Positions 6,732 to 42,735 of a stretch of DNA of 64,000 nt are shown here, in pieces. The translations under genes were made by a program, and so were the position numbers. The notes beneath the pieces are model-generated. The model ran no database searches and had not been told where the DNA came from. It worked only from the letters and a program-made list of their open reading frames with translations. The stretch lies in the IMG/VR virus record IMGVR_UViG_2657245091_000008; one strand, 5' to 3'. This DNA comes from a virus (taxonomy: Duplodnaviria > Heunggongvirae > Uroviricota > Caudoviricetes). Numbering within the stretch: the first letter of the stretch is position 1; the number at the start of each line of letters is the position of its first letter.

Positions 6732-7070
6732 ATGAAACAGGCAACCAGAAAACCGACGACCGTAGGTGATATCCTGCTGTACGAATACCTGGAGCCGTTA
6801 GAGCTGAAGATCAACGAGTTGGCAGAAATACTTCATGTTCATCGTAACACCGTAAGTGCTCTTGTTAATAATAATCGTAAGCTAACGATGGATATGGCAT
6901 ATCGCCTGGCAAAAGCATTCGATACTTCTGTAGATTTTTGGATTAATCTTCAGACCGCAGTAGACCTGTGGGAAGTCGAAAATGATATGCGCGTTCAGGA
7001 AGAGTTAAGTCGTATCAATACTGCTGAAAAATTTATTTCTCAGCGGAACCTGAATAAAAAAGCAGCCTGA
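6732..7070 (+). CDS. higA: antitoxin HigA (XRE-family HTH)
   Basis: 112-aa ORF with an N-terminal HTH (ELAEILHVHRNTVSALVNN). Confidence 0.75.
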   Translation: MKQATRKPTTVGDILLYEYLEPLELKINELAEILHVHRNTVSALVNNNRKLTMDMAYRLAKAFDTSVDFWINLQTAVDLWEVENDMRVQEELSRINTAEKFISQRNLNKKAA

Positions 7071-27682: not shown

Positions 27683-28072
27683 ATGGGCTTCCCTTCTCCT
27701 GCGGCGGATTATGTTGAAAGCCGAATTTCTCTTGATCAGCAACTAATCAGGCATCCATCAGCAACCTACTTCATGCGGGCGGCAGACAGCCATCACCGTG
27801 AGGGAATATTGCAGGGTGCTTTGCTGGTGGTTGATTCTTCGCTTACTCCAGTTGATGGTTCGCTGCTTGTGTGCGCTATGGAGGGTGAATATCGCATAAA
27901 GAGATACCGAAAGTATCCGCGCCAGCACCTGGAGGATTTAAGCACCGGGAAGAAAGAGGCGTTACCAGTAGATGACGATGGTTACACGGGTAGTAATGCT
28001 GTTTTTGGTGTGATCACTCATGTCATCAATGATGCCCGAAGTGGGGAGTTTGATGATTGTCCGGTCATTTAA
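27683..28072 (+). CDS. humD: UmuD'-like protein (HumD)
   Basis: Begins MGFPSPAADYVE, i.e. at the position of the UmuD cleavage product; SOS box upstream; followed by phd-doc as in P1. Confidence 0.8.
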   Translation: MGFPSPAADYVESRISLDQQLIRHPSATYFMRAADSHHREGILQGALLVVDSSLTPVDGSLLVCAMEGEYRIKRYRKYPRQHLEDLSTGKKEALPVDDDGYTGSNAVFGVITHVINDARSGEFDDCPVI

Positions 28073-28144
28073 GCTGCAAAGTGCTGGTGCTTTATGCCTG
28101 TGAAGTTTATGATTGTGTACACATAACGAGTACACGAGGTGTTT

Positions 28145-28366
28145 ATGCAGTCCATTAACTTCCGTACCGCGCGCGGCAACCTTTCTGAATTGCTCAACAA
28201 TGTTGAAGCCGGGGAAGAGGTTGAAATCACCCGCAGAGGCCGTGAACCAGCAGTAATTGTCAGCAAGGCTACTTTCGAAGCCTACAAAAAGGCGGCGCTG
28301 GATGCTGAATTTGCATCCCTGTTTGACACCCTGGACTCCACCAACAAGGAACTGGTTAACCGATAA
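28145..28366 (+). CDS. phd: antitoxin Phd
   Basis: 73-aa product [39 protein letters not shown]...; GAGGTG Shine-Dalgarno; overlaps the doc start. Confidence 0.9.
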
Positions 28367-28746
28367 TGAGGCATATATCACCGGAAGAACTTATTGCGCT
28401 TCATGATGCGAATATAAGCCGCTACGGCGGCCTGCCGGGAATGTCAGATCCGGGTAGGGCAGAGGCCATTATCGGGAGAGTTCAGGCCAGAGTTGCCTAC
28501 GAAGAGATCACCGACCTTTTCGAAGTCTCCGCAACCTACCTGGTGGCTACTGCGAGAGGGCATATATTCAATGATGCCAATAAGCGTACCGCGCTAAACA
28601 GTGCGCTGCTATTTCTACGCCGTAACGGTATACAGGTATATGATTCTCCCGTGCTGGTGGAACTTGCGGTGGGGGCTGCAACTGGTGAAATCCCCGTATC
28701 TTCAGTAGCGGAAAAACTACGTGAACTATATGGTTCCAATATTTGA
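28366..28746 (+). CDS. doc: toxin Doc (Fic family)
   Basis: 126-aa product [22 protein letters not shown]..., recognisable as P1 Doc. Confidence 0.9.
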
Positions 28747-28781
28747 AAAGAAGCCCGCTCAACCAGGCGGGCTTCCTACTA

Positions 28782-29888
28782 TCACTCAATGATTTTTTCT
28801 GCTGTCAGCCAGCTAATTTCTTGCCTGTCTTTCGGCGGTTTTAGCATGTGGGCGTATTCAGCAACATTCTCCCACGGAATTGTTTTTGCCCACTCAACGA
28901 TAGCATTGTGATCTGCAGTGAAGAGTGGAATGGTGTGCGATTTCAACCACTCCAATGTTGTAACGCCATGTTTTTTGGCGTGGTGCTGTGCATGATGCCG
29001 GGCTATCACTCGTAATGGCATTATCCATTCACTACCATCAGGCATCGAAAAGCGCATTGTCTTCGGCATATCTGATTCAAGAACAGCCTCCCTAATACCA
29101 GGAAACTCACCAAGAACCATACGACGGTAGTAATCGCTGTTTTTACCACCATATATTTCTGCAATGTTATCAAGATAACCTTGAGAAATAATGGGGGTAT
29201 CTTCTGCGTTCAGCTTGATGGCTGTATAAATACCACATGGATTTTCTTCTGATTTAGCACGACCATGATGGGAATCGTAAAAGTGTCCATGCTCCTCCTC
29301 TGAAGGAGCGGACATTAAAAGTATACGTGAATCGTCACTTACTAACGATGCTCTTAACATGCTGAATAGCCGATCGCCAGCAAGAGCCGCCTCCGTAACA
29401 ATGATTAAAAGATGTTCAGCATAATATCCACCGAAACCTTCCTCATAATTTCGGTGATATGGCTTAATTTCGCAGCCCCAATATTCCCGGTAACGATGAT
29501 TGATGCCGTTTCCATCGACTTTAAAATATTCTCCCAGCAATGGGATTCTGTTACTGACTCTATCCCAATACGTACTTATGTATTGGATAACTTGCCTGCG
29601 ACAATTATAGAACTTTGGGGAAACAATAACCGTTTTAGACTCAGGCATCAGGATTGTATAAAGAATACTAATTATAGCGATAACCGTCTTTTGGCCTATC
29701 CCTTCAGGAGTGGTGACGCTGACTGCTGAACCTTTTTGTTGAATCGCCTCAACAATTAGCTTTTGCTGGTGGGTTAACTTAACACCCATCAACTCTTCTG
29801 CTGCTAATGCCCAGTCATGGCTATATTTGCTTACCAGCTCTCTCCACTCTGGTAATTCGGTGATGTTTTTAGGCGTCAGCATCAGCAT
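28782..29888 (-). CDS. terminase-large-subunit (PacB)-like ATPase paralogue
   Basis: Region GFGGYYAEHLLIIVTEAALAGDR...LLMSAPSEEEHGHFYDSHHGRAKSEENPCGIYTAIKLNAEDTP aligns by eye with the PacB core at 35223-36731; Walker-B-like DEAS is replaced by TEAA. Confidence 0.5.
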   Translation of the reverse strand: MLMLTPKNITELPEWRELVSKYSHDWALAAEELMGVKLTHQQKLIVEAIQQKGSAVSVTTPEGIGQKTVIAIISILYTILMPESKTVIVSPKFYNCRRQVIQYISTYWDRVSNRIPLLGEYFKVDGNGINHRYREYWGCEIKPYHRNYEEGFGGYYAEHLLIIVTEAALAGDRLFSMLRASLVSDDSRILLMSAPSEEEHGHFYDSHHGRAKSEENPCGIYTAIKLNAEDTPIISQGYLDNIAEIYGGKNSDYYRRMVLGEFPGIREAVLESDMPKTMRFSMPDGSEWIMPLRVIARHHAQHHAKKHGVTTLEWLKSHTIPLFTADHNAIVEWAKTIPWENVAEYAHMLKPPKDRQEISWLTAEKIIE

Positions 29889-30675
29889 CCTCCGCTACCT
29901 CTGCCTCCACATCTGCCGCGACTTCATCGGACTGTTCTTCTTTGGCCTGTTCTGCAATCGCCGCACGGCATTTGGCCCTTGCTGTGGCGATTGCTTCAGC
30001 ACGCACATCATCAGGAATCGTTGACGTGATATACATATCCAGTTCTTCGGCGCGGAACACTGTTTGGTCCAGATATTCGCGTAGCATCCAGGTAAATTCG
30101 AAATCACACGCGATAATCTCTGCGCTACCTTCTGCACCATTTGGGAAATGAATAAATGCCTGTTTAGCCAAACCGATAACACGACATGCGGTTGCCAAAA
30201 CAGCGACAACCAGATTTACATTTTCACACGCTACGGGCTGATTAACGCCGGAGATTACTCCATTTAACTGTCGGTTATATGGAAGGTAGTTTGAGATGCG
30301 TTCTACGCGCCATGTGCCAGTCAGGCTGCCATTTTTAAAGATAATTGGTGTAACGGATAGCCCAAGCTCGCGTATAAGTCGTTGCGCTATAGCAGGATCA
30401 TTAAACAGGTCTAATGCTACACATTCGAAAGACTGCGCAAGGGCAAACAGTTCTTCCAGAGAGTAGTCTTTGCCCCTGGCGGTGATGTAACGACGAACGC
30501 CGCTGTCTGCATCACTCCATATAGCTACGCCATGCTCTTCATTCAGTTCTTCATTAAAGCCGAGATACGTCATGATAGTGCGTTCAATCGTGTCAAACGG
30601 CAGTGACATGTCGGCGTTAACAGCCACCAGCAGGCCATTACGCAAGCGGTATTGAATTGTTTTGGTGCTTTCCAT
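29869..30675 (-). CDS. hypothetical protein with acidic C-terminal tail
   Basis: 268-aa ORF in the dre operon. Confidence 0.45.
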   Translation of the reverse strand: MESTKTIQYRLRNGLLVAVNADMSLPFDTIERTIMTYLGFNEELNEEHGVAIWSDADSGVRRYITARGKDYSLEELFALAQSFECVALDLFNDPAIAQRLIRELGLSVTPIIFKNGSLTGTWRVERISNYLPYNRQLNGVISGVNQPVACENVNLVVAVLATACRVIGLAKQAFIHFPNGAEGSAEIIACDFEFTWMLREYLDQTVFRAEELDMYITSTIPDDVRAEAIATARAKCRAAIAEQAKEEQSDEVAADVEAEVAEDADADA

Positions 30676-30681
30676 GTCAAA

Positions 30682-31338
30682 TTACTCCACTACAAACCAG
30701 TCACATGCCAGTAAATCAGCAACAGACGGCAACCAAACGTTGTCTATATTTTGCGCATCCTTCAATACAAAATGGTCGCCATAAGGAACCTGAATGTCGT
30801 GGAAATTGACGCACCCAGCTAGAACTAACCAGCAGCATTGCTTTTCGCCTTTCCACCCGCGTCGAGATACCTTTCTTCCTTCTTTCAACCACGTCAGCGC
30901 GACAGAAAAGTCGGCTGCTTCAAGGTCGATTTCTTCTTGTTGGGTAGTGATACCACCAGCAGAAATAGTTACGTCCCTGGCTGTAATGAATGTCACCCCA
31001 TTGTGACCTTCAATCCTGAGCGATACCCCATTTTCGAAGATGTCGTTAGTTCGACTAAAGCCATCTTTAAATTTCTTTTCTGATAAACAGGACAGATGAC
31101 CTTCTTCATCAACGACAAGATAGCCGCCAACTTGTGGTAGGTGTTTTTGCAAAAACATTGCATCAACATAGATTCTTACTCCTTTGGGTTCTGTGACCTC
31201 GATTTCACCACAATTAGGCATCACAGGAGTAATACCACCGATGTATTTGATATTCTTGATTTTCGATGCACTAACGTTTTTGTGAGCTTTGTATTTGGGA
31301 AGGAACTTAAAAAGCTCTTTCGTTGCCATGTTATTCAT
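30682..31338 (-). CDS. protein with C-terminal DUF2829 (Tad2-like) domain
   Basis: C-terminal FSVALTWLKEGRKVSRRGWKGEK matches the DUF2829 pattern A..LK.G.KV.R.GW.G. Confidence 0.45.
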   Translation of the reverse strand: MNNMATKELFKFLPKYKAHKNVSASKIKNIKYIGGITPVMPNCGEIEVTEPKGVRIYVDAMFLQKHLPQVGGYLVVDEEGHLSCLSEKKFKDGFSRTNDIFENGVSLRIEGHNGVTFITARDVTISAGGITTQQEEIDLEAADFSVALTWLKEGRKVSRRGWKGEKQCCWLVLAGCVNFHDIQVPYGDHFVLKDAQNIDNVWLPSVADLLACDWFVVE

Positions 31339-31352
31339 AGTCTTTTCTCTGC

Positions 31353-31847
31353 TTATAACTTTTCGTACTGAAGCGGTGAACGCTTAATTTCAAAGTGGCC
31401 TTCCGATGTGCTACCAAAGCCACCAGCACCACGTTCCGTTTCGTTGAGTTCCTCAACCTCGACTAGTGAGACTTGTTCAACACGCTCAAAAATGCCTTGC
31501 ATGACAGCCATTCCAGGCTTGAGACAAACGCCTTCCCCGCCGGGATCAGTAATCAGTTTTGCCATGATTTCACCGCGATAATCGGAGTCGATAATTCCTA
31601 CGCAGTTAGCCAGGCGAGTATGTTTTTTGCAGCCCAATCCGGATCGCGGATAGAGTTTCAGACACCAGCCGGGCGGGATCTCCATAGCCAGTCCGGTATA
31701 CACCCACCAGCTTGAGGAAATTGCACCATTGCTATCGACGCATGGTTTTATTTCAACAGCCTCAAAATCCATCGCCGCCGATCCGGAGGTGGCATAAGCT
31801 GGAAGTTTTGCTGCCGGATGTAGGCGTTTCACTTTTACGTAAATCAT
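31353..31847 (-). CDS. dut: dUTPase
   Basis: dUTPase motifs GIIDSDYRGE (motif III) and RGAGGFGSTSEG (motif V). Confidence 0.7.
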   Translation of the reverse strand: MIYVKVKRLHPAAKLPAYATSGSAAMDFEAVEIKPCVDSNGAISSSWWVYTGLAMEIPPGWCLKLYPRSGLGCKKHTRLANCVGIIDSDYRGEIMAKLITDPGGEGVCLKPGMAVMQGIFERVEQVSLVEVEELNETERGAGGFGSTSEGHFEIKRSPLQYEKL

Positions 31848-32320
31848 TGTTTTTTAGCTCTCTGCGTGAAGGTGTAAACCCGACGTTTGATATGTGGAAC
31901 GGTAGGAACAGGAAGACAGGAACTTTCAATAACTCCTTGCTCCTCCAGCGATCGCACCGCCCGCAAGAACTGCGACGTGTCGCCGCCAAACTGGCGGGCA
32001 TAGGTGCTGCCGTTATGAAGTATTTGAGCTATTACCCGAGCTTTTGTCTGGCTGACACGATATGCGAATAGCCGCACGGCCTCTTCTGGCGCAATCGCTA
32101 ACTGATAGCCTTTCCCGGCACGGTGTCGAATGAATCCATGCGCCAGTAGGTTTTTGAGTTCGTTACGAGTGCGAACAGATCCGTAATCCAGGAAGTGTGG
32201 ATTGATAACGACTGGCTTAAACCATTCCGTAGGTGCTTTAGCTAATAGAGCTAACAGCTTCCCGGATAATTCTGGATAGGAAGACGGGTAACAATTCAGA
32301 GATGGGTAATAAGTTTTCAC
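31844..32320 (-). CDS. hypothetical protein
   Basis: 158-aa ORF, coupled. Confidence 0.45.
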   Translation of the reverse strand: MKTYYPSLNCYPSSYPELSGKLLALLAKAPTEWFKPVVINPHFLDYGSVRTRNELKNLLAHGFIRHRAGKGYQLAIAPEEAVRLFAYRVSQTKARVIAQILHNGSTYARQFGGDTSQFLRAVRSLEEQGVIESSCLPVPTVPHIKRRVYTFTQRAKKQ

Positions 32321-32661
32321 CGACGCCCCCTTGCAGGATATCGACCTGCATTAGTATCCGGTGCAATAAAGCCGGTAGTGGGGCGAGTGAAAGCGAGATT
32401 AATCTTCTCGACCATAGTGCGATAATTTTCCTGATAGTGGGCCAGGAGTTTTTCGGCGGCAATGATGGTTACTTTCCGGACGTAGCTTTCTGCTTCCTCC
32501 AGATTTCGCCAGTTTTTTTCGAGGGTAAACACAGGGACGGCCTCAAGCCCGGTCATGATGCCGAACACAACGACAGCATGACTGTTCTTAACACCAGCGG
32601 CGAAGGTTACGGTGTAACCATCCACCTTGAAGCGTCTTGATTCCGTGATTTGACTCTGCAA
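32317..32661 (-). CDS. hypothetical protein
   Basis: 114-aa ORF; operator-like site directly upstream. Confidence 0.45.
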   Translation of the reverse strand: MQSQITESRRFKVDGYTVTFAAGVKNSHAVVVFGIMTGLEAVPVFTLEKNWRNLEEAESYVRKVTIIAAEKLLAHYQENYRTMVEKINLAFTRPTTGFIAPDTNAGRYPARGRR

Positions 32662-32706
32662 AGCACCCTCCTAAATAGGCGAGGGTACTTTACAGCAAAG
32701 GCGTTA

Positions 32707-32726
32707 ATCTAAAAAGATGTGTTAGA
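32707..32726. promoter_or_regulatory. operator-like site
   Basis: GTGTTAGAAATTTAAT between the recombinase stop and the next gene start. Confidence 0.45.
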
Positions 32727-32734
32727 AATTTAAT

Positions 32735-33763
32735 TTACGAATCCATCAGGCGGCTATTAGCCCCCACAGACACGCCGCCACGGCGAAGATACCGCATAAG
32801 TGTTTCCGGTTTCTTCCAGGTTCCTTCCTGCATGATCTCCACCATAGACACCTGCTTTTCAGCCATATCAATAGCGGCCCCGACGCGTGCACTATGCCCG
32901 GTCCACGTCCGGTATCTTCCTTTGTTTGGCGTAGCATCTCTTTTATTCAGCAACACCCAGGCGTCGCTGAATATTTTCTCCATTGCAGGTGCAGTAAGGG
33001 GTGTTGTCGTGATCCTGGCCTTATTGCTACGGTGTATCGGCGGGAACAGCACTGCGTCAGGATGTTCGCGAAGCCCGGAAACATCCAGCCAGTCATTCAG
33101 CACAGCGGTAGTGCGACGGGAAAGCACCTTATCAAGCCCGGCGGCGGTCGTTATTGTCTTCGTGTGTGAAATATGTAGCGTGACAGTGTCACCTGTTTGA
33201 TCCAGATCTCCTACACGAATACGCGAGATTTCCGACATACGCATCAGCGTATTGTATGCAACAAAGAGAAAAGCCCGGTTGCGCAGGTCCACCAGCCGTT
33301 CTGACCTGGACAACAGGACGTCGAGCAGTTTCAGATCGTCCCACCGAAGCGGTATAGCCTGGCCTGTTCGTTCGCCTTTTTCAGTTGCCGCTTCGCGCCG
33401 GATGCGCCGCATAGCCAGAGAAACACTTTTATCATCCGAAAGTGGCGGAAGACCACAATGCGAAAGCAGCATGTTCAGCATGGCGTAGTGCTTATCAATG
33501 GTGGTCGAAGCCAGATCGGCATCATGCAGCTGAAGAAAATACTCGCGGGCCATTTCTGGTGAGATCGGAAACCAGGCAAGCTGGCGAGCGTGACACCAGC
33601 GCGCCCAGGAATGAAACACCAACCGGAGGTCGCGCAGAGTATTCGGCGCATAAGCCCCCTGGTCATTCATGAACCGCATAAAGTTTTCTGCGGCTTCCTG
33701 GTACTCTTTGCCAATGTTGCGCAGAAAACCACCGGAACTGCCAGAGATAATTAATTCACTCAT
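32735..33763 (-). CDS. dre: Cre-family tyrosine recombinase (Dre-like)
   Basis: 342 aa; blocks aligning with Cre by eye (AFLFVAYNTLMRMSEISRIRVGDL; TWTGHSARVGAAIDMA with catalytic-region His/Arg, C-terminal Tyr region); a rox-type site about 150 bp upstream. Confidence 0.8.
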   Translation of the reverse strand: MSELIISGSSGGFLRNIGKEYQEAAENFMRFMNDQGAYAPNTLRDLRLVFHSWARWCHARQLAWFPISPEMAREYFLQLHDADLASTTIDKHYAMLNMLLSHCGLPPLSDDKSVSLAMRRIRREAATEKGERTGQAIPLRWDDLKLLDVLLSRSERLVDLRNRAFLFVAYNTLMRMSEISRIRVGDLDQTGDTVTLHISHTKTITTAAGLDKVLSRRTTAVLNDWLDVSGLREHPDAVLFPPIHRSNKARITTTPLTAPAMEKIFSDAWVLLNKRDATPNKGRYRTWTGHSARVGAAIDMAEKQVSMVEIMQEGTWKKPETLMRYLRRGGVSVGANSRLMDS

Positions 33764-33915
33764 GAAACTATTTGACCTCTATATACAGATGACGCTACGC
33801 GAAAAATATAAAAATGACAGGGTAGCTATAAGTTAATTTTCAAAATACAAGCCTTTGATTCGAGGCACGTATTTTCAGTGATGTCAACACTGTTCATCTA
33901 CACATGATTATAGCC

Positions 33916-33947
33916 TAACTTTAAATAATGCCAATTATTTAAAGTTA
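33916..33947. other. rox-like recombination target site (14-bp inverted repeats, 4-bp spacer)
   Basis: TAACTTTAAATAAT-GCCA-ATTATTTAAAGTTA, a perfect inverted repeat; arms begin TAACTT like loxP arms; matches the published rox site as I recall it. Confidence 0.75.
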
Positions 33948-34044
33948 CAGAATGGCGATTTTTTTTAATCCATCATAGATTGATTTTGACCAGTAACACG
34001 TTGCCTTCATGGTCTTTAATTTGCGAAGTGTGGTTTATACAGTT

Positions 34045-34145
34045 GGTTTTCTAAAATTGATGACAAAAAATCACAGTTCGATCCTTTACTCACTCTGTTA
34101 TTCGACATAAATTTGTCATAGTAATTTTATGTTAGAAAACTAAAT
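34045..34145. promoter_or_regulatory. two operator-like sites in the promoter of the candidate repressor gene
   Basis: GGTTTTCTAAAATTGA (34045-34060) and ATGTTAGAAAACTAAAT (34129-34145), the second only 12 bp before the start codon. Confidence 0.5.
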
Positions 34146-34157
34146 CGAGTAGGAATA

Positions 34158-35195
34158 ATGAGTAAGAAGTCGATCGAGAAAGAGTACAAACGGTTCCTGC
34201 AAACCGCTGAACGGTGGAAAGAGCTGGTGGTCGCAAACTCTGTTTTCCATGATACCAGTTATGCTGGCGAGGAATTCCGCCATGTTGCATTAACGCATGA
34301 CCAAAACATATTAGAAGAAGCTGAAAAATGTCTTGCTGAATGGAAAGCCTTCGTTGACATGTGCCGCGATGCCGACGGCAAAGCGTCGAACATTGTTGAG
34401 TCTGTATATTCTCCGATCCCATTCATCATTGAGGACACCAATCAAAGCACGCATGTTGTTGTGCAAAGCGCTACAACAACACGTACATTTACACGTGAAC
34501 AATTGCTCAAAAAATACGACAAAATCATAAAGAAAAGCCTGAAAAATAGGGTTTTTTCTCAAATTGTAGGTGCTCTTGAAGAAGAACAGCGCTTCTTTGA
34601 AGCTGAGCCTGAAGGCGAGATCTACCGGGCGCGTAAAGAGGCATATACAGATGTTGTGCTGACAACAAACATCGAAGGCAGCAATGCCCTTTCTCGCTTT
34701 AGAGTTGGCGCACATGGCGCATTGGTTTTCGCAAGACTACCGAAGACAACGATCCCCGTTGTCAATAATGTTGGTGAACGCCGGAGCATTACAATTTATT
34801 CAGGCGTCGAATCGGTACCTTGCAGCCTTCTCGGCGATTTTAACTTATATCGTGTTCGTGACCTGGAAAAACACCAGCCAAGCTACGTTGCGAAGTCGTA
34901 CATCTTAAGGAACATCGATATTCGCAATGAAAGCCTTAAGCAGAAATCCGCTAAGATGCTGGAGGATGCCGATCCGGCTATTCGCCATATCATTGAGCGT
35001 AAGATACGTACATCACGTGAAGCAATGGCAAGGCTGGATAAAATGGATCTGGAATTGTTAGACGTAATGATGGCCTCTGGAGACGACCTGACCGGCATTA
35101 AACTGAATGAAGCTCGTAAAAAATACGGCAAAGCAATCGAAGAACGTTACGGATACACATTCCCCCAAACGCAGTACGCCGCGAAGCTCTGGTAA
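34158..35195 (+). CDS. candidate master (C1-analogous) repressor
   Basis: 345-aa ORF at the c1 position (convergent with pacB, beside the rox site) with two operator-like motifs just upstream; no similarity to P1 C1 that I can recognise by eye. Confidence 0.35.
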   Translation: MSKKSIEKEYKRFLQTAERWKELVVANSVFHDTSYAGEEFRHVALTHDQNILEEAEKCLAEWKAFVDMCRDADGKASNIVESVYSPIPFIIEDTNQSTHVVVQSATTTRTFTREQLLKKYDKIIKKSLKNRVFSQIVGALEEEQRFFEAEPEGEIYRARKEAYTDVVLTTNIEGSNALSRFRVGAHGALVFARLPKTTIPVVNNVGERRSITIYSGVESVPCSLLGDFNLYRVRDLEKHQPSYVAKSYILRNIDIRNESLKQKSAKMLEDADPAIRHIIERKIRTSREAMARLDKMDLELLDVMMASGDDLTGIKLNEARKKYGKAIEERYGYTFPQTQYAAKLW

Positions 35196-35203
35196 TCACA
35201 ACC

Positions 35204-35224
35204 GGCCCCGCATCGCGGGGCTTT
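35204..35224. terminator. bidirectional terminator hairpin between convergent genes
   Basis: CCCCGC-atc-GCGGGG hairpin flanked by T-rich sequence. Confidence 0.5.
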
Positions 35225-36731
35225 ATATATCCAGATCTGGCATTTCGATATCCGCCAGAACCTGATCTCGGAAAGTTGCCATTTCGGCACCAATATCTTC
35301 ATTAGCAGGCACATAGTCCACCAGCATAGTGAAGCAGTAGGTATCCCATCGGTCAGGCGATTTGATGTTTAGCTTTTGCCGCATGTGCTCTTTGCGCATC
35401 ATCGCCATTTTCCCTTCCTCATTCAGTAAAAAGGGGATTTTTGACGCTTGCTCTGCCGTTTTAGGGTCACTGTCTATCCGCATACGCCCTGACTTTATGG
35501 CATCACGCGCCATAATATTTGCGTAGGCACGCTGATTAACAAATCGCTCCCTGTCTTTGTTCGCAAACATGGGTTTTCCCCACCGAATACGTACCGGGTT
35601 CGCACCACGACGCACCAACTGCGCACACGTATCAGAACCAAAACCATCGGCATCAACCGCGATTGTTATATTCGGGTATTTTTCCGGCGTACATTCGTTA
35701 TATATAAAGTCAGCAAAGGCCAATGGGTCCATAGTGCCAGGCATCTCCATTACCTTAAAGTTAACAACGCGCCGCTTATCCCTGTGACCAGATACCTTGC
35801 AGATGTTGAGGACCGACTTATCTCGCCCATTACCAACGTCAGCCGTTGCCACCCATCCCCAGTTTTTCTCCAACAACACCTTGCGGCGAGCAGCGCGATC
35901 GCATTCATCACGACCAAGCAAATAGCCGTTAATTTCTCGTGGGAACTGACCAAGCACCTTGACCATATACTCAATAGAATCGCGCCCACCATATTCCAGA
36001 AGCTTCTGCTTGATGAATTGTGGTGTGACGAACGGTGATTCTTCCGAGTTAAGAACAATTGCTGTCCAGATCCCTTTCGGGTTGTCTGGGGTTTTTGCTT
36101 GAGAATGGTGCGAATCGTAGAAATAACCACTTGGCCTTGTTGGCTGGGATAGCATCAACATCCGGTTATCTTCTTCAGTAAGAGCACCGGTCATTACGCC
36201 GATCGCCTTATCAGATATACCAGATGCTTCATCCAGAATTAGAAGCAAATGTGCCGCGTGTTCCCCCGCCAGCGCTTCTTCGTTGCCGAGTCGATAACCT
36301 TTGCAGAGAACTTCCCAAATCCCCTTACGGGAGCGCTCATAAAACATGGTGTCAGAGAGGACAAAATAGGTCTGCAACCACCCATGACGCTTAACTGCAT
36401 TCGCCCAATACTGTTTAACGTATTTGAATACGCCTGTTTTTACCTGGCCTATCTTGTTAGCAACAATGATGACACGGGCATCGGGGAACAGGATCATAAA
36501 AATCAACAGCAACATCGCGGTAAGGGACGACTTCCCCGTTCCGTGTCCGGACGTGACGGTCGTCCTACTCCCCGTTTCCTGCACTGACTGAATGATCTGC
36601 TGCTGCTGGTGGGAGGGGAACATCCCAAAAATATCGACAACAGCCTGGGTAAAGTTGTAGCGGTATTTGATTACCATATCGCGCCAGCGTGGATCGCTGG
36701 TGACGCATTTAATCTTGCGCCCGCCAGCCAT
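35223..36731 (-). CDS. pacB: terminase large subunit PacB
   Basis: 502 aa; Walker A TSGHGTGKSS, Walker B LLLILDEASG, C-terminal nuclease-like region; directly after pacA. Confidence 0.8.
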   Translation of the reverse strand: MAGGRKIKCVTSDPRWRDMVIKYRYNFTQAVVDIFGMFPSHQQQQIIQSVQETGSRTTVTSGHGTGKSSLTAMLLLIFMILFPDARVIIVANKIGQVKTGVFKYVKQYWANAVKRHGWLQTYFVLSDTMFYERSRKGIWEVLCKGYRLGNEEALAGEHAAHLLLILDEASGISDKAIGVMTGALTEEDNRMLMLSQPTRPSGYFYDSHHSQAKTPDNPKGIWTAIVLNSEESPFVTPQFIKQKLLEYGGRDSIEYMVKVLGQFPREINGYLLGRDECDRAARRKVLLEKNWGWVATADVGNGRDKSVLNICKVSGHRDKRRVVNFKVMEMPGTMDPLAFADFIYNECTPEKYPNITIAVDADGFGSDTCAQLVRRGANPVRIRWGKPMFANKDRERFVNQRAYANIMARDAIKSGRMRIDSDPKTAEQASKIPFLLNEEGKMAMMRKEHMRQKLNIKSPDRWDTYCFTMLVDYVPANEDIGAEMATFRDQVLADIEMPDLDI

Positions 36732-38095
36732 TAATCATCCTCCGGCGGTTCTATCGCGATATCATCATCTCCGGCGTCATACCCTGCATCAGATGCATCA
36801 TAATCACCGTAAATTTCAGCCGTTGCCGAAGGGTCAATATCCAGCTCTTCGTCGTTGGCCTCGAATTCTCCAGCTTTACGCTCGCCATTGCGGTCGTAAT
36901 CTCCGCACCCCAATTCTTCAACAATGGTTGCCACATCCGCCCGGCGCTCTGCCAGCCATTGCGGATGGTTAGCCTGAAGCGTTGCAAACTCCCTTGCCTC
37001 TTTGTCCAGCTGTTCATCATCAACATCATTGACGTCAGAAACAGGTGGTTCGAGAAGAGTGATAGCTTTCGCCGCGCGCGCCGCGAGGATAGCCGGGACG
37101 CTGACCCCCTGGCGCTCGATGTATTCAGCAACACCGATATCATCCAGTTCCTCGCGCTCACGCATACGTATAGCGGCGGCGATAACTCTGGCAGCGCGTG
37201 CGTCAGCGCCAATGCGATATTCAATCTCTTTGCCACGCTGTTCGGCCTGTAGGCGTGCTAATTCGAGTTTTTCTCTGGCCTCAGCCTCTTTGAATGCTTG
37301 CTGGCGAGCGCTCTGACGAAGCTTTTCATCCCCCTGTCGCAGCTTTTGTTCGGACTGATATATAGCTGCCAACCTACTGATAAAATCATTCATGTAGTAG
37401 GCCGCGTCACTGATTAGACCGAGAAGGCGCTGCCCAGGGTGCATTCCTTCTGGCTCTTTATCGCCCAAGGCGTCTATTTCCGCCTGTAGACGTTCGGCCT
37501 CCTGATCAACAATGCTTTGATACTGAAGTGCGCGCTCTTGCGCCATTTGAATTGCTAACCGCAGGTGTTCTTCTGCGCCGTTCTTCATCATATCGCGAGC
37601 CACATTCGTAGTGGGCAATGTGGCACGCTGCACAGCACCGCCAGGGATCATTGCTGAAGATCCCTCAATTTTTGGGGCGCTTTTATCTTCTTCGGGGATC
37701 ATTTTCGCCATTTTTTCGCGCAATGATCTCCTGACAGATTCTTTTATCTCATTGTTATTATTGGTATTACTTTCATGATCCGAAGTTTTCTTTCTTGGCA
37801 TACTTCGGAAAGAACCTGCACCCTGCGAATTGTCAATTTCTGTAAATTTTGTTTTTTCTGCACCCTCTTCCAGCTTTTTTGTTGCTCTTCCCGCCCGTTT
37901 TTTTTCAGGTGATTTGGTGCTTTTTTTTGTTGTCTTTACCTGCGACCGCACCTCATTTTTTTTCATATTGAGATGCTTTCTGGCTGTATTGAAGCTAAGA
38001 CCATGCTCCTCACAGTATTCCTTTACAGTGATCCCTTTTTCTTCACGCAACGCTATAAAGCGGGCGCGGTGCTCCTCCCAATTAACCAGACTCAT
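36731..38095 (-). CDS. pacA: terminase small subunit PacA
   Basis: 454 aa; N-terminal HTH-like region (MSLVNWEEHRARFIALREEKGITVKEYCEEHGLS), acidic C-terminus; 1-bp overlap with pacB. Confidence 0.7.
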   Translation of the reverse strand: MSLVNWEEHRARFIALREEKGITVKEYCEEHGLSFNTARKHLNMKKNEVRSQVKTTKKSTKSPEKKRAGRATKKLEEGAEKTKFTEIDNSQGAGSFRSMPRKKTSDHESNTNNNNEIKESVRRSLREKMAKMIPEEDKSAPKIEGSSAMIPGGAVQRATLPTTNVARDMMKNGAEEHLRLAIQMAQERALQYQSIVDQEAERLQAEIDALGDKEPEGMHPGQRLLGLISDAAYYMNDFISRLAAIYQSEQKLRQGDEKLRQSARQQAFKEAEAREKLELARLQAEQRGKEIEYRIGADARAARVIAAAIRMREREELDDIGVAEYIERQGVSVPAILAARAAKAITLLEPPVSDVNDVDDEQLDKEAREFATLQANHPQWLAERRADVATIVEELGCGDYDRNGERKAGEFEANDEELDIDPSATAEIYGDYDASDAGYDAGDDDIAIEPPEDD

Positions 38096-38484
38096 AAAGC
38101 AACACCACGCTTTTTAACGGCGGCATTCCACAGCTTATTCGCCATGTCCACCAGCTCTCGTTGCTCTTTTCGCGCCTGTTCGACTGATTTCCTGCTACAG
38201 TTTTTAACCAGTAAGCTACCGTATTCAGGCGTGCGCCCGCGCACCTTGAACTGATATCCGTTCAGACCATGTAGCCAGTATTTTCGTGGATACACACGAT
38301 CATCCAGCTCACAGATTGCCCTGCTTGAACGAACAAAATGACGAATGATGTTAGTTACACTTACTCGTGAAACATGGAGATGAGGGTATTTTTCTTTGGC
38401 GAGAGTGGTAATTTCAGTGACTGTCAGATAGCAGTCAGCCCTGATCATGATATCCGCAATTTCTGCGCTGCTGATTTGTTCCAT
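38092..38484 (-). CDS. lpa: late promoter activator Lpa
   Basis: 130-aa ORF immediately upstream of pacA with an operator-like site in its promoter, as for P1 lpa. Confidence 0.55.
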   Translation of the reverse strand: MEQISSAEIADIMIRADCYLTVTEITTLAKEKYPHLHVSRVSVTNIIRHFVRSSRAICELDDRVYPRKYWLHGLNGYQFKVRGRTPEYGSLLVKNCSRKSVEQARKEQRELVDMANKLWNAAVKKRGVAL

Positions 38485-38560
38485 TAATCCCCCGGGCAGG
38501 AAATGACCGAGGGGATGATAATGAGAATGTTAAAACTGTATAGACTGGTAAAAAGATGAT

Positions 38561-38577
38561 TGTATTAGAAAATTAAT
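38561..38577. promoter_or_regulatory. operator-like site upstream of lpa
   Basis: TGTATTAGAAAATTAAT about 80 bp upstream of the lpa start. Confidence 0.45.
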
Positions 38578-38592
38578 ATTAAACACCTAATG

Positions 38593-38985
38593 CTACCAGC
38601 GAGACAAACGAACAACATGTTTCACTTTTGCGATCCACTTTCCGCGATAACTATTGATTACGGCCTGTGCCAGCTTCAAATTGGCTTCAAAATCAGCCTT
38701 ACTACCATCAGACTCCACCAGCATTCCTCCATCTATTTCTGGTAAACATAGATAATCCTGCTCAACCTGCAGCGGCATTGATGGCTCTCTGAATGGCGTT
38801 ACTTGCTCTGCTTTCCAGCGAAATCTAACCCTCATCCCCCTGGTGGTCATTACTAGATAGCCTGTTATAGTGCTTTTATGGCCCACATCAGTACGCGTGG
38901 CATTGCATGACACGATCTTACAGTTAGCGATAGACCACTCCATATTGGTGGCCTGTTGAGTGCTTAATTTGGTAGTCCCGTACAT
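38593..38985 (-). CDS. hypothetical protein
   Basis: 130-aa ORF. Confidence 0.45.
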   Translation of the reverse strand: MYGTTKLSTQQATNMEWSIANCKIVSCNATRTDVGHKSTITGYLVMTTRGMRVRFRWKAEQVTPFREPSMPLQVEQDYLCLPEIDGGMLVESDGSKADFEANLKLAQAVINSYRGKWIAKVKHVVRLSRW

Positions 38986-39560
38986 CAGAAAGCCTCCCAG
39001 TCAGTCGCGATAATATCCACACCAGTTGCAAACCAGTCTGTCTGCGCCTGTAAATCCCCATTCATCATTACCAGGCGAGGCATCACCATCACATCGCACC
39101 CTTCCACAATATCGAATGCCTCTTCCGGCAAGAATTCGAAGAGCTTTTCTTTGCTGCCAATGCTGCCACGGAACATCGATATATAGCTCCCTTTAGGCCA
39201 TGATGTCCGCCGGGCATCAAGCCCTTTCATCATCCAGTAAAAAGCCGAGGAAAAAGGGATATTCTTTTTGCCAATGATTACATTATTCGCTTCTGTGTAC
39301 TTCAGGAACTTAACTAACCTTACCATTGACTCGGATAACGCAACGTATGGCTCATGATTGATTGCTGACACGCTTACACCGTGCAATCCAACGCTTACCA
39401 CTGTCATATCGCCGCTCTGTGCGGTTTCGATATTGACGCCTTTGCGAACTAATGAGGCGTAAAGTTCCTCTCGCTTTTGGGTCCAGCGTTCCCGCTTCCC
39501 TATGAAGTCACTCAAAATGAGATCTTCTTCTGCATATGCGTTATCGTTCGCCATTAACAT
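38985..39560 (-). CDS. hypothetical protein with DUF2829-like segment
   Basis: 191 aa; FSSAFYWMMKGLDARRTSWPKGSYI resembles the DUF2829 core. Confidence 0.4.
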   Translation of the reverse strand: MLMANDNAYAEEDLILSDFIGKRERWTQKREELYASLVRKGVNIETAQSGDMTVVSVGLHGVSVSAINHEPYVALSESMVRLVKFLKYTEANNVIIGKKNIPFSSAFYWMMKGLDARRTSWPKGSYISMFRGSIGSKEKLFEFLPEEAFDIVEGCDVMVMPRLVMMNGDLQAQTDWFATGVDIIATDWEAF

Positions 39561-40014
39561 AACGTCTCCTTTTTTACGCGCGCGACTATCCCCCGGAAGT
39601 ACCGGTAGTGATGTCGTAACTTCGTATTAATTAAGGGGTACAGCCTGAGCGGCTATATGATGAATTGAAAGGAGTTGTGGCGGTGGTGCCTCCACCTGCC
39701 AGGTTAGCCACTCCTGGCGACGTCACTTATCAGAACGTAGTGAATGAAAATGGCTTCGTCACGAGCGCATAGCCGCAATTACCACAACGGAAACGGCGCT
39801 CGCATTAATTAAACGCCTTTTCCTGTTGTGCGCCGTACTCTTCCGGCTGTCACACCGAATCGCCAGGATGGTGAGTCCCTGAGTCCGCTATCCCTCCAGC
39901 GGTGACTTGCACATTCCGGCTACCTGATGTGCCCATGCAGTGTTAGTAAGGTACCTAACAGCTACACCAGACCGCTAACGACGCATGTGCCATACGTCGT
40001 GTTACAACCAAATA

Positions 40015-40090
40015 TGGTGGCCCCTACCGGATTTGAACCGGTGACCGTGCGATTATGAGTCGCCTGCTCTAACCACTGAGCTAAAGGGCC
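40015..40090 (-). tRNA. tRNA-Ile (anticodon CAU, ileX-like) or tRNA-Met
   Basis: Minus-strand GGCCCTTTAGCTCAGTGGTTAGAGCAGGCGACTCATAATCGC...GGTTCAAATCC...GGGGCCACCA; cloverleaf with CAU anticodon and encoded CCA; very close to E. coli ileX as I recall it. Confidence 0.8.
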
Positions 40091-40227
40091 AGATTACTGT
40101 TAATTCCGCTTACGCTTTTTGCCAGAACCGCGTAAGGCTTTTGCCGCTTGCTCGACCCCATATGCAACCACCAGCAAAAATAAAAATGTCCAACCAGGGT
40201 TCTTATCGGCAAACGCCCAAAAATTCA

Positions 40228-40551
40228 TCACTTACAGCCACCTTGCATTTCCTCGGATAATTCATTGATTTTAGTGCTCAATAAGTAATCAAAGTAAAGA
40301 TAAAACACAAAAGTAACGATAGTGCTTAAAGTGTCTGAAATTGCGTATTTCAGCTCAGGAAGCATGACAAAGCAGACAAATAGCGGAAGAAATAACTGCA
40401 CTATGCACAGGCTCTCCTTCCACAACCATCTATATCTGAAGTCTGACAACAAAAACTCCATTGCTTGAAACTTTATTAGATTGCGGTGCCTGGTGCCTCC
40501 AGGTGACGTTAACCAGTTAACAATTAACGCCGGGATGTTTGACTTAACCAC
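40228..40551 (-). CDS. possible small membrane protein between tRNA genes
   Basis: 107-aa AT-rich ORF with hydrophobic stretches; no clear ribosome-binding site. Confidence 0.25.
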   Translation of the reverse strand: MVKSNIPALIVNWLTSPGGTRHRNLIKFQAMEFLLSDFRYRWLWKESLCIVQLFLPLFVCFVMLPELKYAISDTLSTIVTFVFYLYFDYLLSTKINELSEEMQGGCK

Positions 40552-40711
40552 TAAGGAGGATTGTTTTAACTGTTCCGCGTGCGCTTAGCCGCATTCACCG
40601 CAATGGTAAGAGCACTTGGCTGGCTGGGCGGCGATGACGCCTGTACGCATTTGGTGATCCGGTTCTGCTTCCGGCATTCGCTTAATTAGCCAAATACTCT
40701 TAACGTTGCGC

Positions 40712-40798
40712 TGGCGGAGAGTAATGGAATCGAACCATCATCGCTTGCGCAATGGGACGGTTTTCAAGACCGCTTGAGCACCATGCTCCCTACTCTCC
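40712..40798 (-). tRNA. class II tRNA, anticodon UGA (tRNA-Ser-like)
   Basis: 87 nt; acceptor GGAGAGT/ACTCTCC, anticodon loop CUUGAAA, variable arm with GCAA tetraloop, T loop TTCGATT, discriminator G, encoded CCA. Confidence 0.65.
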
Positions 40799-41170
40799 CG
40801 TTATTGTGGCGACCGGTGCTGATCTCCGGCTTGCGGTTATTTCAGACTCTCACGGGCGTTTAATTGCCCCGCCGAACAGCTCTTTTCCGCAATAGCTGCA
40901 ATGTCTTTCGCGCATCAGCCTGCGCATTCACCACAATGTTGAGAACACTGGTTGTCACGCTGCAACGCAACATTTATTCGTAGATTGGGATATGACCCCG
41001 TTACGCCAGTGTTCTCAACGTTGTAGTGCCGGTTACGGTTCCGGCCAGGCCTCTTCCTCAACGGGGTGTTCTCCATACGGACTACCGTTTATTGGTCGTT
41101 CCTGCGGTTTATGTTGTGAAGCCAGATGCTTATCTTCTGGTTGCTTCAAAGAGCTGCACTTCCTCACAAC

Positions 41171-41244
41171 GGTAAGGGTACTTCGTAGGGATTCGAACCC
41201 TCTGCCAAGCTCGGCGATCTCCGACGTCGCAAAATACCCTTACC
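41171..41244 (-). other. tRNA-like fragment / degenerate tRNA
   Basis: Contains a T-arm-like GGGTTCGAATCCC and a 10-bp terminal inverted repeat (GGTAAGGGTA...TACCCTTACC) but no foldable anticodon or D arm. Confidence 0.3.
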
Positions 41245-41252
41245 TGTTGTGC

Positions 41253-41328
41253 TGGTGCCGATTAACGGACTCGAACCGCTGACCATTCGCTTACAAAGCG
41301 ACTGCTCTACCAACTGAGCTAAATCGGC
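41253..41328 (-). tRNA. tRNA-Thr (anticodon UGU)
   Basis: GCCGATTTAGCTCAGTTGGTAGAGCAGTCGCTTTGTAAGCGAATGGTCAGCGGTTCGAGTCCGTTAATCGGCACCA on the minus strand. Confidence 0.85.
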
Positions 41329-41332
41329 AATT

Positions 41333-41419
41333 TGGTGGGGAGTGATGGAGTCGAACCACCCGAGTCGCAATGACAGTAGATTTACAGTCTACCCCGCTAC
41401 CCCTACGGACTAACTCCCC
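41333..41419 (-). tRNA. tRNA-Tyr (anticodon GUA)
   Basis: 87-nt class II tRNA; anticodon arm GTAGACTGTAAATCTAC, T loop GGTTCGACTCC, discriminator A, CCA. Confidence 0.8.
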
Positions 41420-41424
41420 TAAAG

Positions 41425-41501
41425 TGGCGATGGTGGGTGGATTCGAACCACCGACCGACAGCTTAGAAGGCTGCTGCTCTATCCTACTGAGCTACACCAT
41501 C
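41425..41501 (-). tRNA. tRNA-Arg (anticodon UCU, rare AGA/AGG decoder)
   Basis: GATGGTGTAGCTCAGTAGGATAGAGCAGCAGCCTTCTAAGCTGTCGGTCGGTGGTTCGAATCCACCCACCATCGCCA. Confidence 0.8.
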
Positions 41502-42735
41502 ACTTGCCGGGTACGTCTCCGGCGAGGGCTTCCACCTCCGTATGCTTTTCGGCGCACCGCGCCCTGGCTGCAATTCGGTAACAGGGGATGCATAACCCTG
41601 GCTTCCAGCGTGATTAGCGCCTTCAGCATGACGGGATATACCCGTTACAAGAAATTCCCCCAGGATGCCATTAAGCAATGGCTGTTACGCGGGAGGGACG
41701 TAACAGGTAAGGGCGCTGACCAGAAAGACCTGACCCTTCTCATTCATCTGGTTAATCACACCAGCGCCCTTGCCTGTTATGCCTCCCCGTTCCCTAATAC
41801 ACAGACGGGGACACTCTGCGGTCGATTTTTTGACGGGGGACGACTCATACCCCGTGGCGTCTGGCTTCTTAGGCCGCTACCATCATCAGATCATCGTTTG
41901 CATTTACTTTAATGGTCGGTTTCTAAACCGCCGCAAAGTCGCTAACCATGACGAAAACCCTAAAAAAGCCCACCCGAAGATGGGCAAATACGCTACATCT
42001 CACACAAGAAAGAAGCCGACTGCCTGAGCTGGATTCACTTTCAAATGCCCGCAGAAAGGGATCACAAGTCGGCTTCTTTCTTGATGCGGCACTCTCTCCG
42101 CCCGTCACCGCTCTGTCTCGGTTGTCGCGTTTGCCACGCCAGCCGTAACGAGGTTTAAAGTCTTTGCACGTTTCCATCACTCGACTGCCGTCTGTGGCTG
42201 TTCGTTGCAGCGGGGGTGCCTCCCCCTGGGGATATCCCCGGCCTTACCCCATTCTTTCAAGACACAATGCAAGGCCACATCCGCATAGGTGCATTACCGC
42301 AACATTAAGGAGACTCAGGGCAAAAGGTAACCGCCACAAAAATCCCTATGCCTCCTTAATGTTGAAGATGTGCATTGATGATTAGATGCAGCATGTACTG
42401 TTACTCTCTGCCGGACCATCATCAATGAACACCTTAAAAAGACCTTCCGTGGCTCAACATGTATTGTCGTTTACTCCGCAAAGTGCTCTCTCTGAAACCA
42501 CTTTCCGCACTAAACCTGTTGAACTTTGGTCAGCTCGGTGCCAAAGCGTGCTTTTGCTTTACTATACTTTTCTAACACTTTAATTTGTTAACAGCCGGTG
42601 GGCAAACAATAACCAATAAGTGACTATCAAGCCCAGCAAGCGAAACGTGGGTGCCGCCCACCAGCAAGGAAAATTCTATGTTAAGTTATCATCACAATCA
42701 ATACATTCGAATTGTGATTTTAGATTTCTAACACA

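Follow-up and report, generated by a model that had tools for sequence, protein, structure and literature searches.

Does a phage-plasmid that already carries DarB-type antirestriction also encode proteins that soak up the nucleotide signals of host immunity? The question is raised by a viral DNA of 64,000 nucleotides (IMG/VR record IMGVR_UViG_2657245091_000008, Caudoviricetes; this whole stretch is called the window), in which an earlier note, made from the letters alone, had pointed to two proteins with DUF2829 signatures, one at 30682-31338 (protein 1) and one at 38985-39560 (protein 2), and had proposed them as candidate anti-defence factors resembling the Thoeris anti-defence protein Tad2. 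Both open reading frames (ORFs) are present at these positions, on the minus strand, and the description of the phage as one with DarB antirestriction also stands, in that a 2278-amino acid (aa) ORF at 45934-52770 has the methylase and SNF2-helicase architecture of DarB. The evidence set out below points to both proteins being Tad2-family sponges of a nucleotide immune signal, a reading that family, fold and modelled structure make moderately probable for the pair, likely for protein 1 and tentative for protein 2. Signal sequestration would be their most likely function, with good support in the case of protein 1 and less in that of protein 2.

In the mechanism proposed here, the C-terminal domains of proteins 1 and 2 would assemble into a presumed Tad2 oligomer, in which ligand pockets between the protomers would trap a nucleotide-derived immune signal, so that the host effector would never be activated. 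For protein 1, the most likely targets are signals of the Toll/interleukin-1 receptor (TIR)/Thoeris type, 3' cyclic adenosine diphosphate ribose (3'cADPR) and/or histidine-ADPR (His-ADPR), and its N-terminal part, an oligonucleotide/oligosaccharide-binding (OB) fold with a stalk resembling the phage decoration protein Dec, would probably serve as an oligomerisation scaffold. Protein 1 would be one allele of a cassette shuffled among P1-family phage-plasmids, and protein 2 would probably bind a related small molecule. Oligomeric state, ligand binding, ligand identity, the timing of expression and the anti-defence effect are predictions for both proteins, placed on directly observed family membership, fold, conservation of a Trp/Trp/Asp core, synteny and distribution.

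The element is a D6-like (P1-family) phage-plasmid of Escherichia coli, D6 itself being the P1-like phage-plasmid from which Dre/rox comes. When positions 28500-40000 were compared with Escherichia phage D6 by megablast, identity was ~99% from ~31540 onward and the window diverged from D6 to the left of this point; because identity ends there, the element is best read as related to D6 but with an accessory region that is mosaic. The neighbourhood of protein 1 is mosaic, and that of protein 2 is ~99% identical to D6.

Family membership, fold and ligand pocket

The check that had been suggested for the DUF2829 assignment, a search with the domain profile, was carried out with Pfam PF11195 (Tad2-like, formerly DUF2829; gathering cut-off 25 bits), and both proteins lie above the cut-off with near-complete profile coverage, protein 1 (218 aa) at 62.3 bits (E 6.6e-17, aa 143-217) and protein 2 (191 aa) at 39.1 bits (E 1.1e-9, aa 103-190). 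The resemblance to the Tad2 core extends to the fold, since AlphaFold models of both proteins superpose on every solved Tad2 with Foldseek template-modelling (TM) scores on target of 0.6-0.86, and the top 23 Foldseek matches of the protein 1 model are Tad2 chains, with scores up to 0.86. Against sequences in the PDB, protein 1 matches ModTad2 at E 2.7e-10 and SPO1 Tad2 at E 4.7e-6, and the best sequence-profile matches of the protein 2 family are AcrIIA7/SptTad2/HgmTad2 at E ~1e-10. A six-frame translation of the window, searched with a hidden Markov model of the domain with all filters off, gave no third Tad2 copy. Recent duplication as the origin of the two proteins was considered and rejected, as their Tad2 domains share only 23% identity by BLASTP (E 0.14).

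The ligand pocket of the family has been described in Tad2 of phage SPO1, a homotetramer that holds 1''-3' glyco-cyclic ADPR (gcADPR) between two protomers; W25 and W73 make van der Waals contacts, N26 and D79 contact phosphates and hydroxyls, T78 contacts the adenine, the contacts of I63 and T65 are non-polar, and waters are coordinated by D67, H71 and S76 (bioRxiv 10.1101/2023.05.01.538930). In HgmTad2, binding is lost in the mutants W21A/N22A and S90A/T92A/D93A (bioRxiv 10.1101/2023.11.15.567273). The corresponding residues were read from an alignment of eight sequences, comprising four solved Tad2s, the two window proteins and, for each of these two, one relative. In this alignment, the two tryptophans and the aspartate of the pocket are invariant, with W25, W73 and D79 of SPO1 corresponding to W162, W202 and D208 in protein 1 and to W121, W176 and D182 in protein 2; F7, A10, G17, R22, A82, D84 and W85 (SPO1 numbering) are likewise invariant. 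At S76, a serine in the solved Tad2s, protein 1 also has Ser and protein 2 has T179. Two positions depart from the solved proteins: N26 (N22 in HgmTad2), an asparagine in all of them, is K163 in protein 1 and P122 in protein 2, and T78 (T92 in HgmTad2), where they have Thr or Ser, is A207 and V181, respectively. Both pocket tryptophans are invariant within the family of each protein, and the aspartate is invariant in the protein 1 family and mostly kept in the protein 2 family, where some members have Ser or Cys. As judged from sequence, the aromatic clamp and the key aspartate are intact in both window proteins and two polar contacts are altered.

Activity of such pockets can be compared with the 18 Tad2 homologues that Hadary et al. 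tested against seven defence systems (bioRxiv 10.1101/2025.08.24.671296). From that study and earlier papers, the ligands of the family include 3'cADPR, His-ADPR, N7-cADPR, dinucleotides (cGG/cGAMP) of the cyclic-oligonucleotide-based antiphage signalling system (CBASS), and cUMP/cCMP of the pyrimidine cyclase system for antiphage resistance (Pycsar). The sequestration of gcADPR, by which the earlier note had characterised Tad2, does belong to the family, but as one of these several ligands. [quoted passage not shown] Another tested homologue, Tad2_72, has Trp-Pro in place of Trp-Asn, as protein 2 does, and is entered as positive for type I Thoeris by plaque assay (Table S2 of bioRxiv 10.1101/2025.08.24.671296), so proline at the Asn26 position is compatible with activity. 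Here the 'n, N/A, y' triplets of that table are interpreted by us as failure of transformation in the plate screen followed by validation in the plaque assay. The G-W-K-G motif of protein 1 occurs in no tested homologue of Table S2, and the peptides of both window proteins are absent from the supplements of the study (tested set and homologue tables).

Several points weigh against a sponge function. The diphosphate-contacting Asn26 and the adenine-bonding Thr78 are both replaced in each protein, as given above. Both proteins carry N-terminal domains of ~100-140 aa, and Tad2, a dimer of dimers, is described as forming its tetramer along the N-terminal helix; a Dec-like stalk, if trimeric, would moreover be at odds with a Tad2 core of four protomers. 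The gene of protein 2 is conserved and syntenic, not variable and accessory, which is unusual among anti-defence genes. Its nearest tested relative, Tad2_69 (27% identity), which likewise has Trp-Pro, was inactive in all seven assays, and Tad2_80, also Trp-Pro, was negative in all seven systems (bioRxiv 10.1101/2025.08.24.671296). Of the two altered positions, that of Thr78 varies in active members too, being Ser in ModTad2 and Gly in Tad2_68. In protein 1, the lysine is a coherent variant and not a one-off mutation, because it is found in 21 clusters of homologues; its maintenance in so many clusters suggests that Lys for Asn, together with a short insertion, would reflect shifted specificity and not loss of function. 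'Candidate anti-defence factors' is a fair description of the two proteins, qualified by the missing Asn26, by the inactivity of Tad2_69 and by their two-domain build, which makes them about twice the size of characterised Tad2s.

Table 1. Features discussed in the text, with positions in the window
Feature	Position	Strand	Basis or remark
Protein 1 Tad2 domain, aa 140-218	30685..30921	-	Lys-type short-insertion allele
Protein 1 gene, 218 aa, stop included	30682..31338	-	Dec-like OB-fold + stalk + Tad2 domain; ORF list, PF11195
Protein 1 linker/stalk, aa 99-139	30922..31044	-	aligns with Dec C-terminal beta-helix stalk; predicted local distance difference test (pLDDT) of monomer <50
Protein 1 N-terminal OB-fold-like module, aa 14-97	31048..31299	-	Dec homology; pLDDT 81-91 over most (AF2)
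dut	31353-31847		window
Dre recombinase	32735-33763		landmark
Candidate sigma-70 promoter, TTGGCA-16-TATAAT	33907..33934	-	11/12 match; overlaps rox (33916-33947); heads dre…368-aa string
C1	34158-35195		landmark
PacB	35223-36731		landmark
PacA	36731-38095		landmark
Lpa	38092-38484		landmark
orf5, 130 aa	38593..38985	-	phrog_7004; no Pfam/NCBIfam match; start base 38985 common to protein 2 ORF end
Protein 2 gene, 191 aa, stop included	38985..39560	-	ORF list, PF11195
Protein 2 Tad2 domain, aa 103-190	38991..39254	-	'W-P' type
Protein 2 N-terminal domain, aa 10-91	39288..39533	-	alpha-alpha-beta-beta-beta-alpha; generic fold resembling double-stranded RNA-binding domain (dsRBD)/HPF
DarB-architecture protein, 2278 aa	45934-52770		methylase + SNF2-helicase

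Protein 1: a Dec-like module and an exchangeable Tad2 domain

The first 139 residues of protein 1 are foreign to Tad2. After the 23 Tad2 chains, the next Foldseek match of the model is the phage L decoration protein Dec (6e3c; E 2.1e-4, 29% identity), and a profile of the N-terminal halves of the protein 1 family matches Dec in the PDB at E 7.5e-6 over Dec residues 53-130, with an alignment that takes in the last part of the OB-fold ('PE.GGYL…Y…AFE') and continues into the C-terminal stalk of Dec. This stalk folds only in the Dec trimer. In the AlphaFold monomer model of protein 1 (mean pLDDT 70), the N-terminal and Tad2 domains are reasonably confident and residues 99-139 fall below 50, and trimer-dependent folding of the stalk would explain this low-confidence segment; the N-terminal module of protein 1 is presumably trimeric too.

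Such homology, stalk included, could mean that protein 1 is a virion decoration protein, in which a Dec-like trimer would sit on the capsid and present the Tad2-like domain as a surface binding module, and the relative P0050 (E. coli, 306 aa), in which a tail-fibre N-terminal repeat (PF03406) is fused ahead of the Dec-like and Tad2 body, can be read in the same direction; P0050 itself could be a true chimera or a product of prophage decay. The gene, however, stands in non-structural strings, namely dre-dut-…-isaA in the window, ssb-…-isaA in the Punaviruses and the early regulatory region in the Klebsiella phage SopranoGao. The same Tad2 module is fused to a dUTPase in the relative P0060, P1 itself does without the gene, and its Tad2 domain matches a cytoplasmic sponge of validated activity at 44-68% identity. 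Because the protein 1 gene behaves as an accessory, non-structural gene, a role in capsid decoration is disfavoured despite the Dec homology, and we regard it as very improbable.

In the window, the protein 1 gene is part of a packed minus-strand string, dre-orf117-orf116-dut-protein 1-isaA-368 aa. The only strong sigma-70-like site, the best in the region, overlaps rox upstream of dre, and a terminator-like hairpin lies at 28753-28768, after the last gene; given this gene packing and the hairpin, the rox-overlapping candidate presumably drives protein 1. The -35 element of the candidate (TTGGCA, 33934-33929) lies within the rox spacer and the -10 element (TATAAT, 33912-33907) just downstream of it, toward dre, and because of this position Dre recombination at rox could rebuild or disrupt the promoter. 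The origin of the D6 record, mid-rox, corresponds to window 33931/33932.

In the Punaviruses SJ46 and Ro157c2YLVW, a homologue ~65% identical to protein 1 is found between ssb and isaA, adjoining hxr; on the P1 map, the ddrB-ddrA-darB operon comes after this locus. This accessory context counts in favour of the sponge reading. P1 is without the gene, ~670 nt being missing between ssb and isaA, and the idea that IS1 interrupts the gene there was rejected, as P1 just does without these nucleotides. In RCS47, the gene is truncated by IS26. A full-length homologue also occurs in the unrelated phage SopranoGao, just past a divergent regulator pair. In PLSDB, the protein 1 family is found in 244 plasmids, almost all of them non-mobilizable and, among the matches listed, mostly of ~80-100 kb; only two of the 244 carry the window's allele at an identity of at least 95%.

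Across 67 clusters of protein 1 homologues, the Tad2 domain comes in three alleles, joined to the preceding part at an invariant 'EEIDLEAADFS' segment. The window allele has G-W-K-G with a short insertion, the lysine being strictly tied to that insertion (all 21 Lys clusters), and the other two (Asn/B and Asn/C) combine longer insertions with the canonical G-W-N-G. Each of the three occurs with both stalk variants and with several N-termini, in nearly every combination, a mix that looks like cassette exchange through recombination at the conserved junction.

Several further observations concern this locus. Protein 1 is a 100% match to the public cluster P0001, which NCBI lists as 'DUF2829 domain-containing protein' and UniRef as 'Thoeris anti-defense Tad2 family protein'. 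P0060 is an in-frame dUTPase-Tad2 fusion of 241 aa (a cluster of 15 sequences, on four contigs, from E. coli phage-plasmids), with the join at a shared 'AGG' (…ERGAGG|ITTQQEEIDLE…) and the C-terminal 'GFGST' motif of the dUTPase lost. The D6 counterpart of protein 1, orf114, is annotated with 146 aa only; the tblastn match of protein 1 to it starts from query residue 75 and reaches upstream beyond the start given for orf114, into what is annotated as the 3' end of dut. The 368-aa ORF that ends the dre…isaA string (28782-29888, minus strand) shares 34% identity over 258 aa (E 2e-52) with the ATPase half, the N-terminal one, of the terminase large subunit PacB, and is a paralogue of that half. 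In this ORF, Walker A is altered from GTGKS to GIGQKT and the nuclease half is missing; it has no Pfam match, is unrelated to P1 PdcB, and is a second, degenerate terminase-ATPase copy in the phage-plasmid.

Protein 2: a syntenic Trp-Pro relative upstream of lpa

Protein 2 is 100% identical to D6 orf6 (D6_6), which is annotated as 'hypothetical protein', and belongs to a narrow family, with 10 clusters at 90% identity in a search of 5.8 billion proteins and 16 representatives at 50% identity in an exhaustive search of 1.84 billion proteins. It occurs in 125 PLSDB plasmids from E. coli, Salmonella, Shigella, Pantoea and Enterobacter, most of the copies being at least 90% identical, and the genes of two relatives, 56% and 23% identical to it, have the same place directly upstream of lpa-pacA-pacB-c1. 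These proteins appear to form a divergent 'Trp-Pro' clade of Tad2, fixed immediately upstream of lpa-pacA-pacB in D6-like elements. A tblastn search of the phage collection with protein 2 matched D6 only, with no match in P1, and P1 pdcB was rejected as its counterpart.

A place held down to 23% identity, directly upstream of lpa-pacA-pacB-c1, in as many as 125 phage-plasmid records, could also be that of a factor for regulation or the life cycle, core to D6-like phage-plasmids, in which the Tad2 fold is reused and which is not a sponge; for example, protein 2 might act in nucleotide sensing or RNA binding around the late-expression/packaging switch, perhaps with its dsRBD/HPF-like N-terminal domain and with the neighbouring orf5. 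The absence of a conserved Asn26 from the family, the inactivity of Tad2_69 against all seven systems and, in our reading of the profile alignment, the lack of conservation of the HgmTad2 contacts to cGG fit such a role, and for the same last reason the idea that protein 2 binds cyclic dinucleotides as HgmTad2 does was found to be unsupported. Set against this, the Trp/Trp/Asp core is kept in the protein 2 family, which would be difficult to account for if no small molecule were bound, Tad2_72, whose Trp-Pro motif is the same, is listed as a type I Thoeris inhibitor, and a regulatory role is known for no DUF2829 protein. We consider a life-cycle role unlikely, and keep it in view because of the strict synteny of protein 2 and the inactive nearest relative.

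Two other labels attach to proteins of this family. AcrIIA7, a DUF2829 protein, came out of an anti-Cas9 screen, and the name 'MW1434 family type I TA system toxin' is given by NCBI to P0075, a relative of protein 2, and to several copies on plasmids, so the window proteins could in principle be anti-CRISPR proteins or toxins. AcrIIA7 has, however, been reinterpreted by the Tad2 authors as the sponge HgmTad2, with ligand complexes solved. The MW1434 label goes back to a 2018 bioinformatic list, in which the entry is an 81-aa phiSa2 prophage gene and the available part gives no toxicity data, and no NCBIfam model matches protein 2 at E 0.1 or better; an NCBIfam scan likewise gave nothing significant for protein 1 or the neighbouring genes. 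A type I toxin is as a rule a small membrane peptide, in contrast to a soluble two-domain protein of 191 aa, and to our knowledge type II-A CRISPR-Cas9 is no feature of E. coli or Salmonella. Both labels are weakly founded, and either function seems to us highly implausible here. In PLSDB, the toxin name is borne by the matches H82, H85 and H86, as it is by P0075, and identical or near-identical copies of protein 2 are called 'hypothetical protein'; because the name appears to rest on that list and conflicts with the Tad2 assignment, it is probably a propagating annotation error.

A more elaborate form of sequestration, which we think distinctly improbable, would make protein 1 a modular sponge displayed on a stalk, with alleles that switch specificity, and protein 2 an orphan of the Trp-Pro clade with a signal yet to be described. 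A trimeric scaffold of Dec-like OB-fold and beta-helix (in P0060, a trimeric dUTPase) would then display the Tad2 domains, the three-fold and two-fold interfaces would combine into higher-order sponge assemblies, and the alleles Lys/short, Asn/B and Asn/C, swapped at 'EEIDLEAADFS', would switch the ligand among Thoeris-type signals of Enterobacterales. In D6-like phage-plasmids, protein 2 would be hard-wired beside the activator of late genes, where it might protect the switch from prophage to lytic growth.

Around protein 2, orf5 may be translationally coupled with it, as the two ORFs share one base (38985); orf5 is kept beside the closer relative, P0075, and beside the distant P0091 another small upstream gene is found instead. 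Upstream of protein 2 on the same strand lie five tRNA genes (Arg-TCT, Tyr, Thr, Ser-TGA and Met; 40015-41501, minus strand), followed by ~450 nt of non-coding sequence (39561-40014, minus strand) between tRNA-Met and the start of protein 2, and then by a good ribosome-binding site. No Rfam match and no consensus promoter was found in this leader, and an Rfam scan of 28000-42500 gave tRNAs only. The tRNA arrangement is unlike that of the D6 record, in which the position of the window's tRNA-Ser (40712-40798) corresponds to 6781-6867, within the tciA-like D6_8. P1-type C1 operators (ATTGCTCTAATAAATTT, at most three mismatches) number zero in the window, and therefore D6-type immunity must use other sites.

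Comparison with characterised Tad2 proteins

Public databases already carry the domain assignment of protein 1, and a specialist would expect temperate phages of enterobacteria to have Tad2 homologues. In the literature searched, no description was found of the Dec-like and Tad2 architecture, of the three shuffled alleles including a Lys-type pocket, of the dUTPase-Tad2 fusion, or of the syntenic Trp-Pro clade adjoining lpa. The two proteins are of modest novelty, being variations inside a known family in which the fusions are unusual and alleles have been shuffled. P1-family phage-plasmids occur widely in E. coli, Salmonella and Shigella of clinical and animal origin, and P1 is a mainstay of phage genetics; because it lacks the protein 1 gene and gave no protein 2 match, P1 offers a naturally 'minus' background, and it has been the test phage in an E. 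coli Pycsar assay in which two anti-Pycsar homologues of Tad2 were examined. If the proteins are active sponges, temperate phage-plasmids would carry signal-sequestering counter-defence beside injected Dar antirestriction, and a prophage-borne copy might blunt Thoeris, CBASS or Pycsar signalling of the host against other phages. The natural alleles, with Asn or Lys and three insertion types, are a ready panel for the determinants of Tad2 ligand specificity, and the Trp-Pro clade is a route toward ligands yet to be assigned.

Among characterised relatives, Tad2_68 (IMG/VR metagenomic, 87 aa) shares its '…YPARMEA.KG…' insertion with the majority allele of the protein 1 locus; it is a single-domain protein with G-W-N-G, whereas protein 1 has G-W-K-G behind a 139-aa N-terminal Dec-like module. 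The insertion from Trp to Trp in protein 1 is the shortest of those compared, at 40 residues, as opposed to 48 in SPO1 Tad2 and 66 in HgmTad2. ModTad2/MoTad2, from a Myroides odoratus prophage (PDB 8V3E, 9EIB), has specificity for His-ADPR or cUMP, and differs in being a single domain of 89 aa with Asn at position 26. The founding member, SPO1 Tad2 (gp34.65; PDB 8SME/8SMF/8SMG), has the same fold and the same W25/W73/D79 core as both window proteins, but it is an 89-aa single-domain protein from a lytic Bacillus phage, and its N26, T78, D67 and H71 are conserved in neither of them.

Protein 2 is like HgmTad2 (AcrIIA7) and SptTad2 (PDB 8KBI-8KBM, 8WJD, 9KZR) in having a long beta2-beta5 insertion with a conserved Pro. 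It differs from HgmTad2 in the change of N22 to Pro and T92 to Val, and in the cGG contacts R31, S47, F70 and N85, which by our reading of the alignment are not conserved in protein 2. The N-terminal extensions of the window proteins have a precedent in the family, in the 158-aa AcrIIA7-type proteins (PDB 9KZR; tested homologue Tad2_73). For the extension of protein 1, the closest known structure is Dec (PDB 6E3C), to whose OB-fold and stalk residues ~14-135 are homologous; Dec is a capsid-binding trimer of 134 aa that carries no Tad2 domain, as opposed to protein 1, in which the same kind of module precedes one and the gene context is non-structural.

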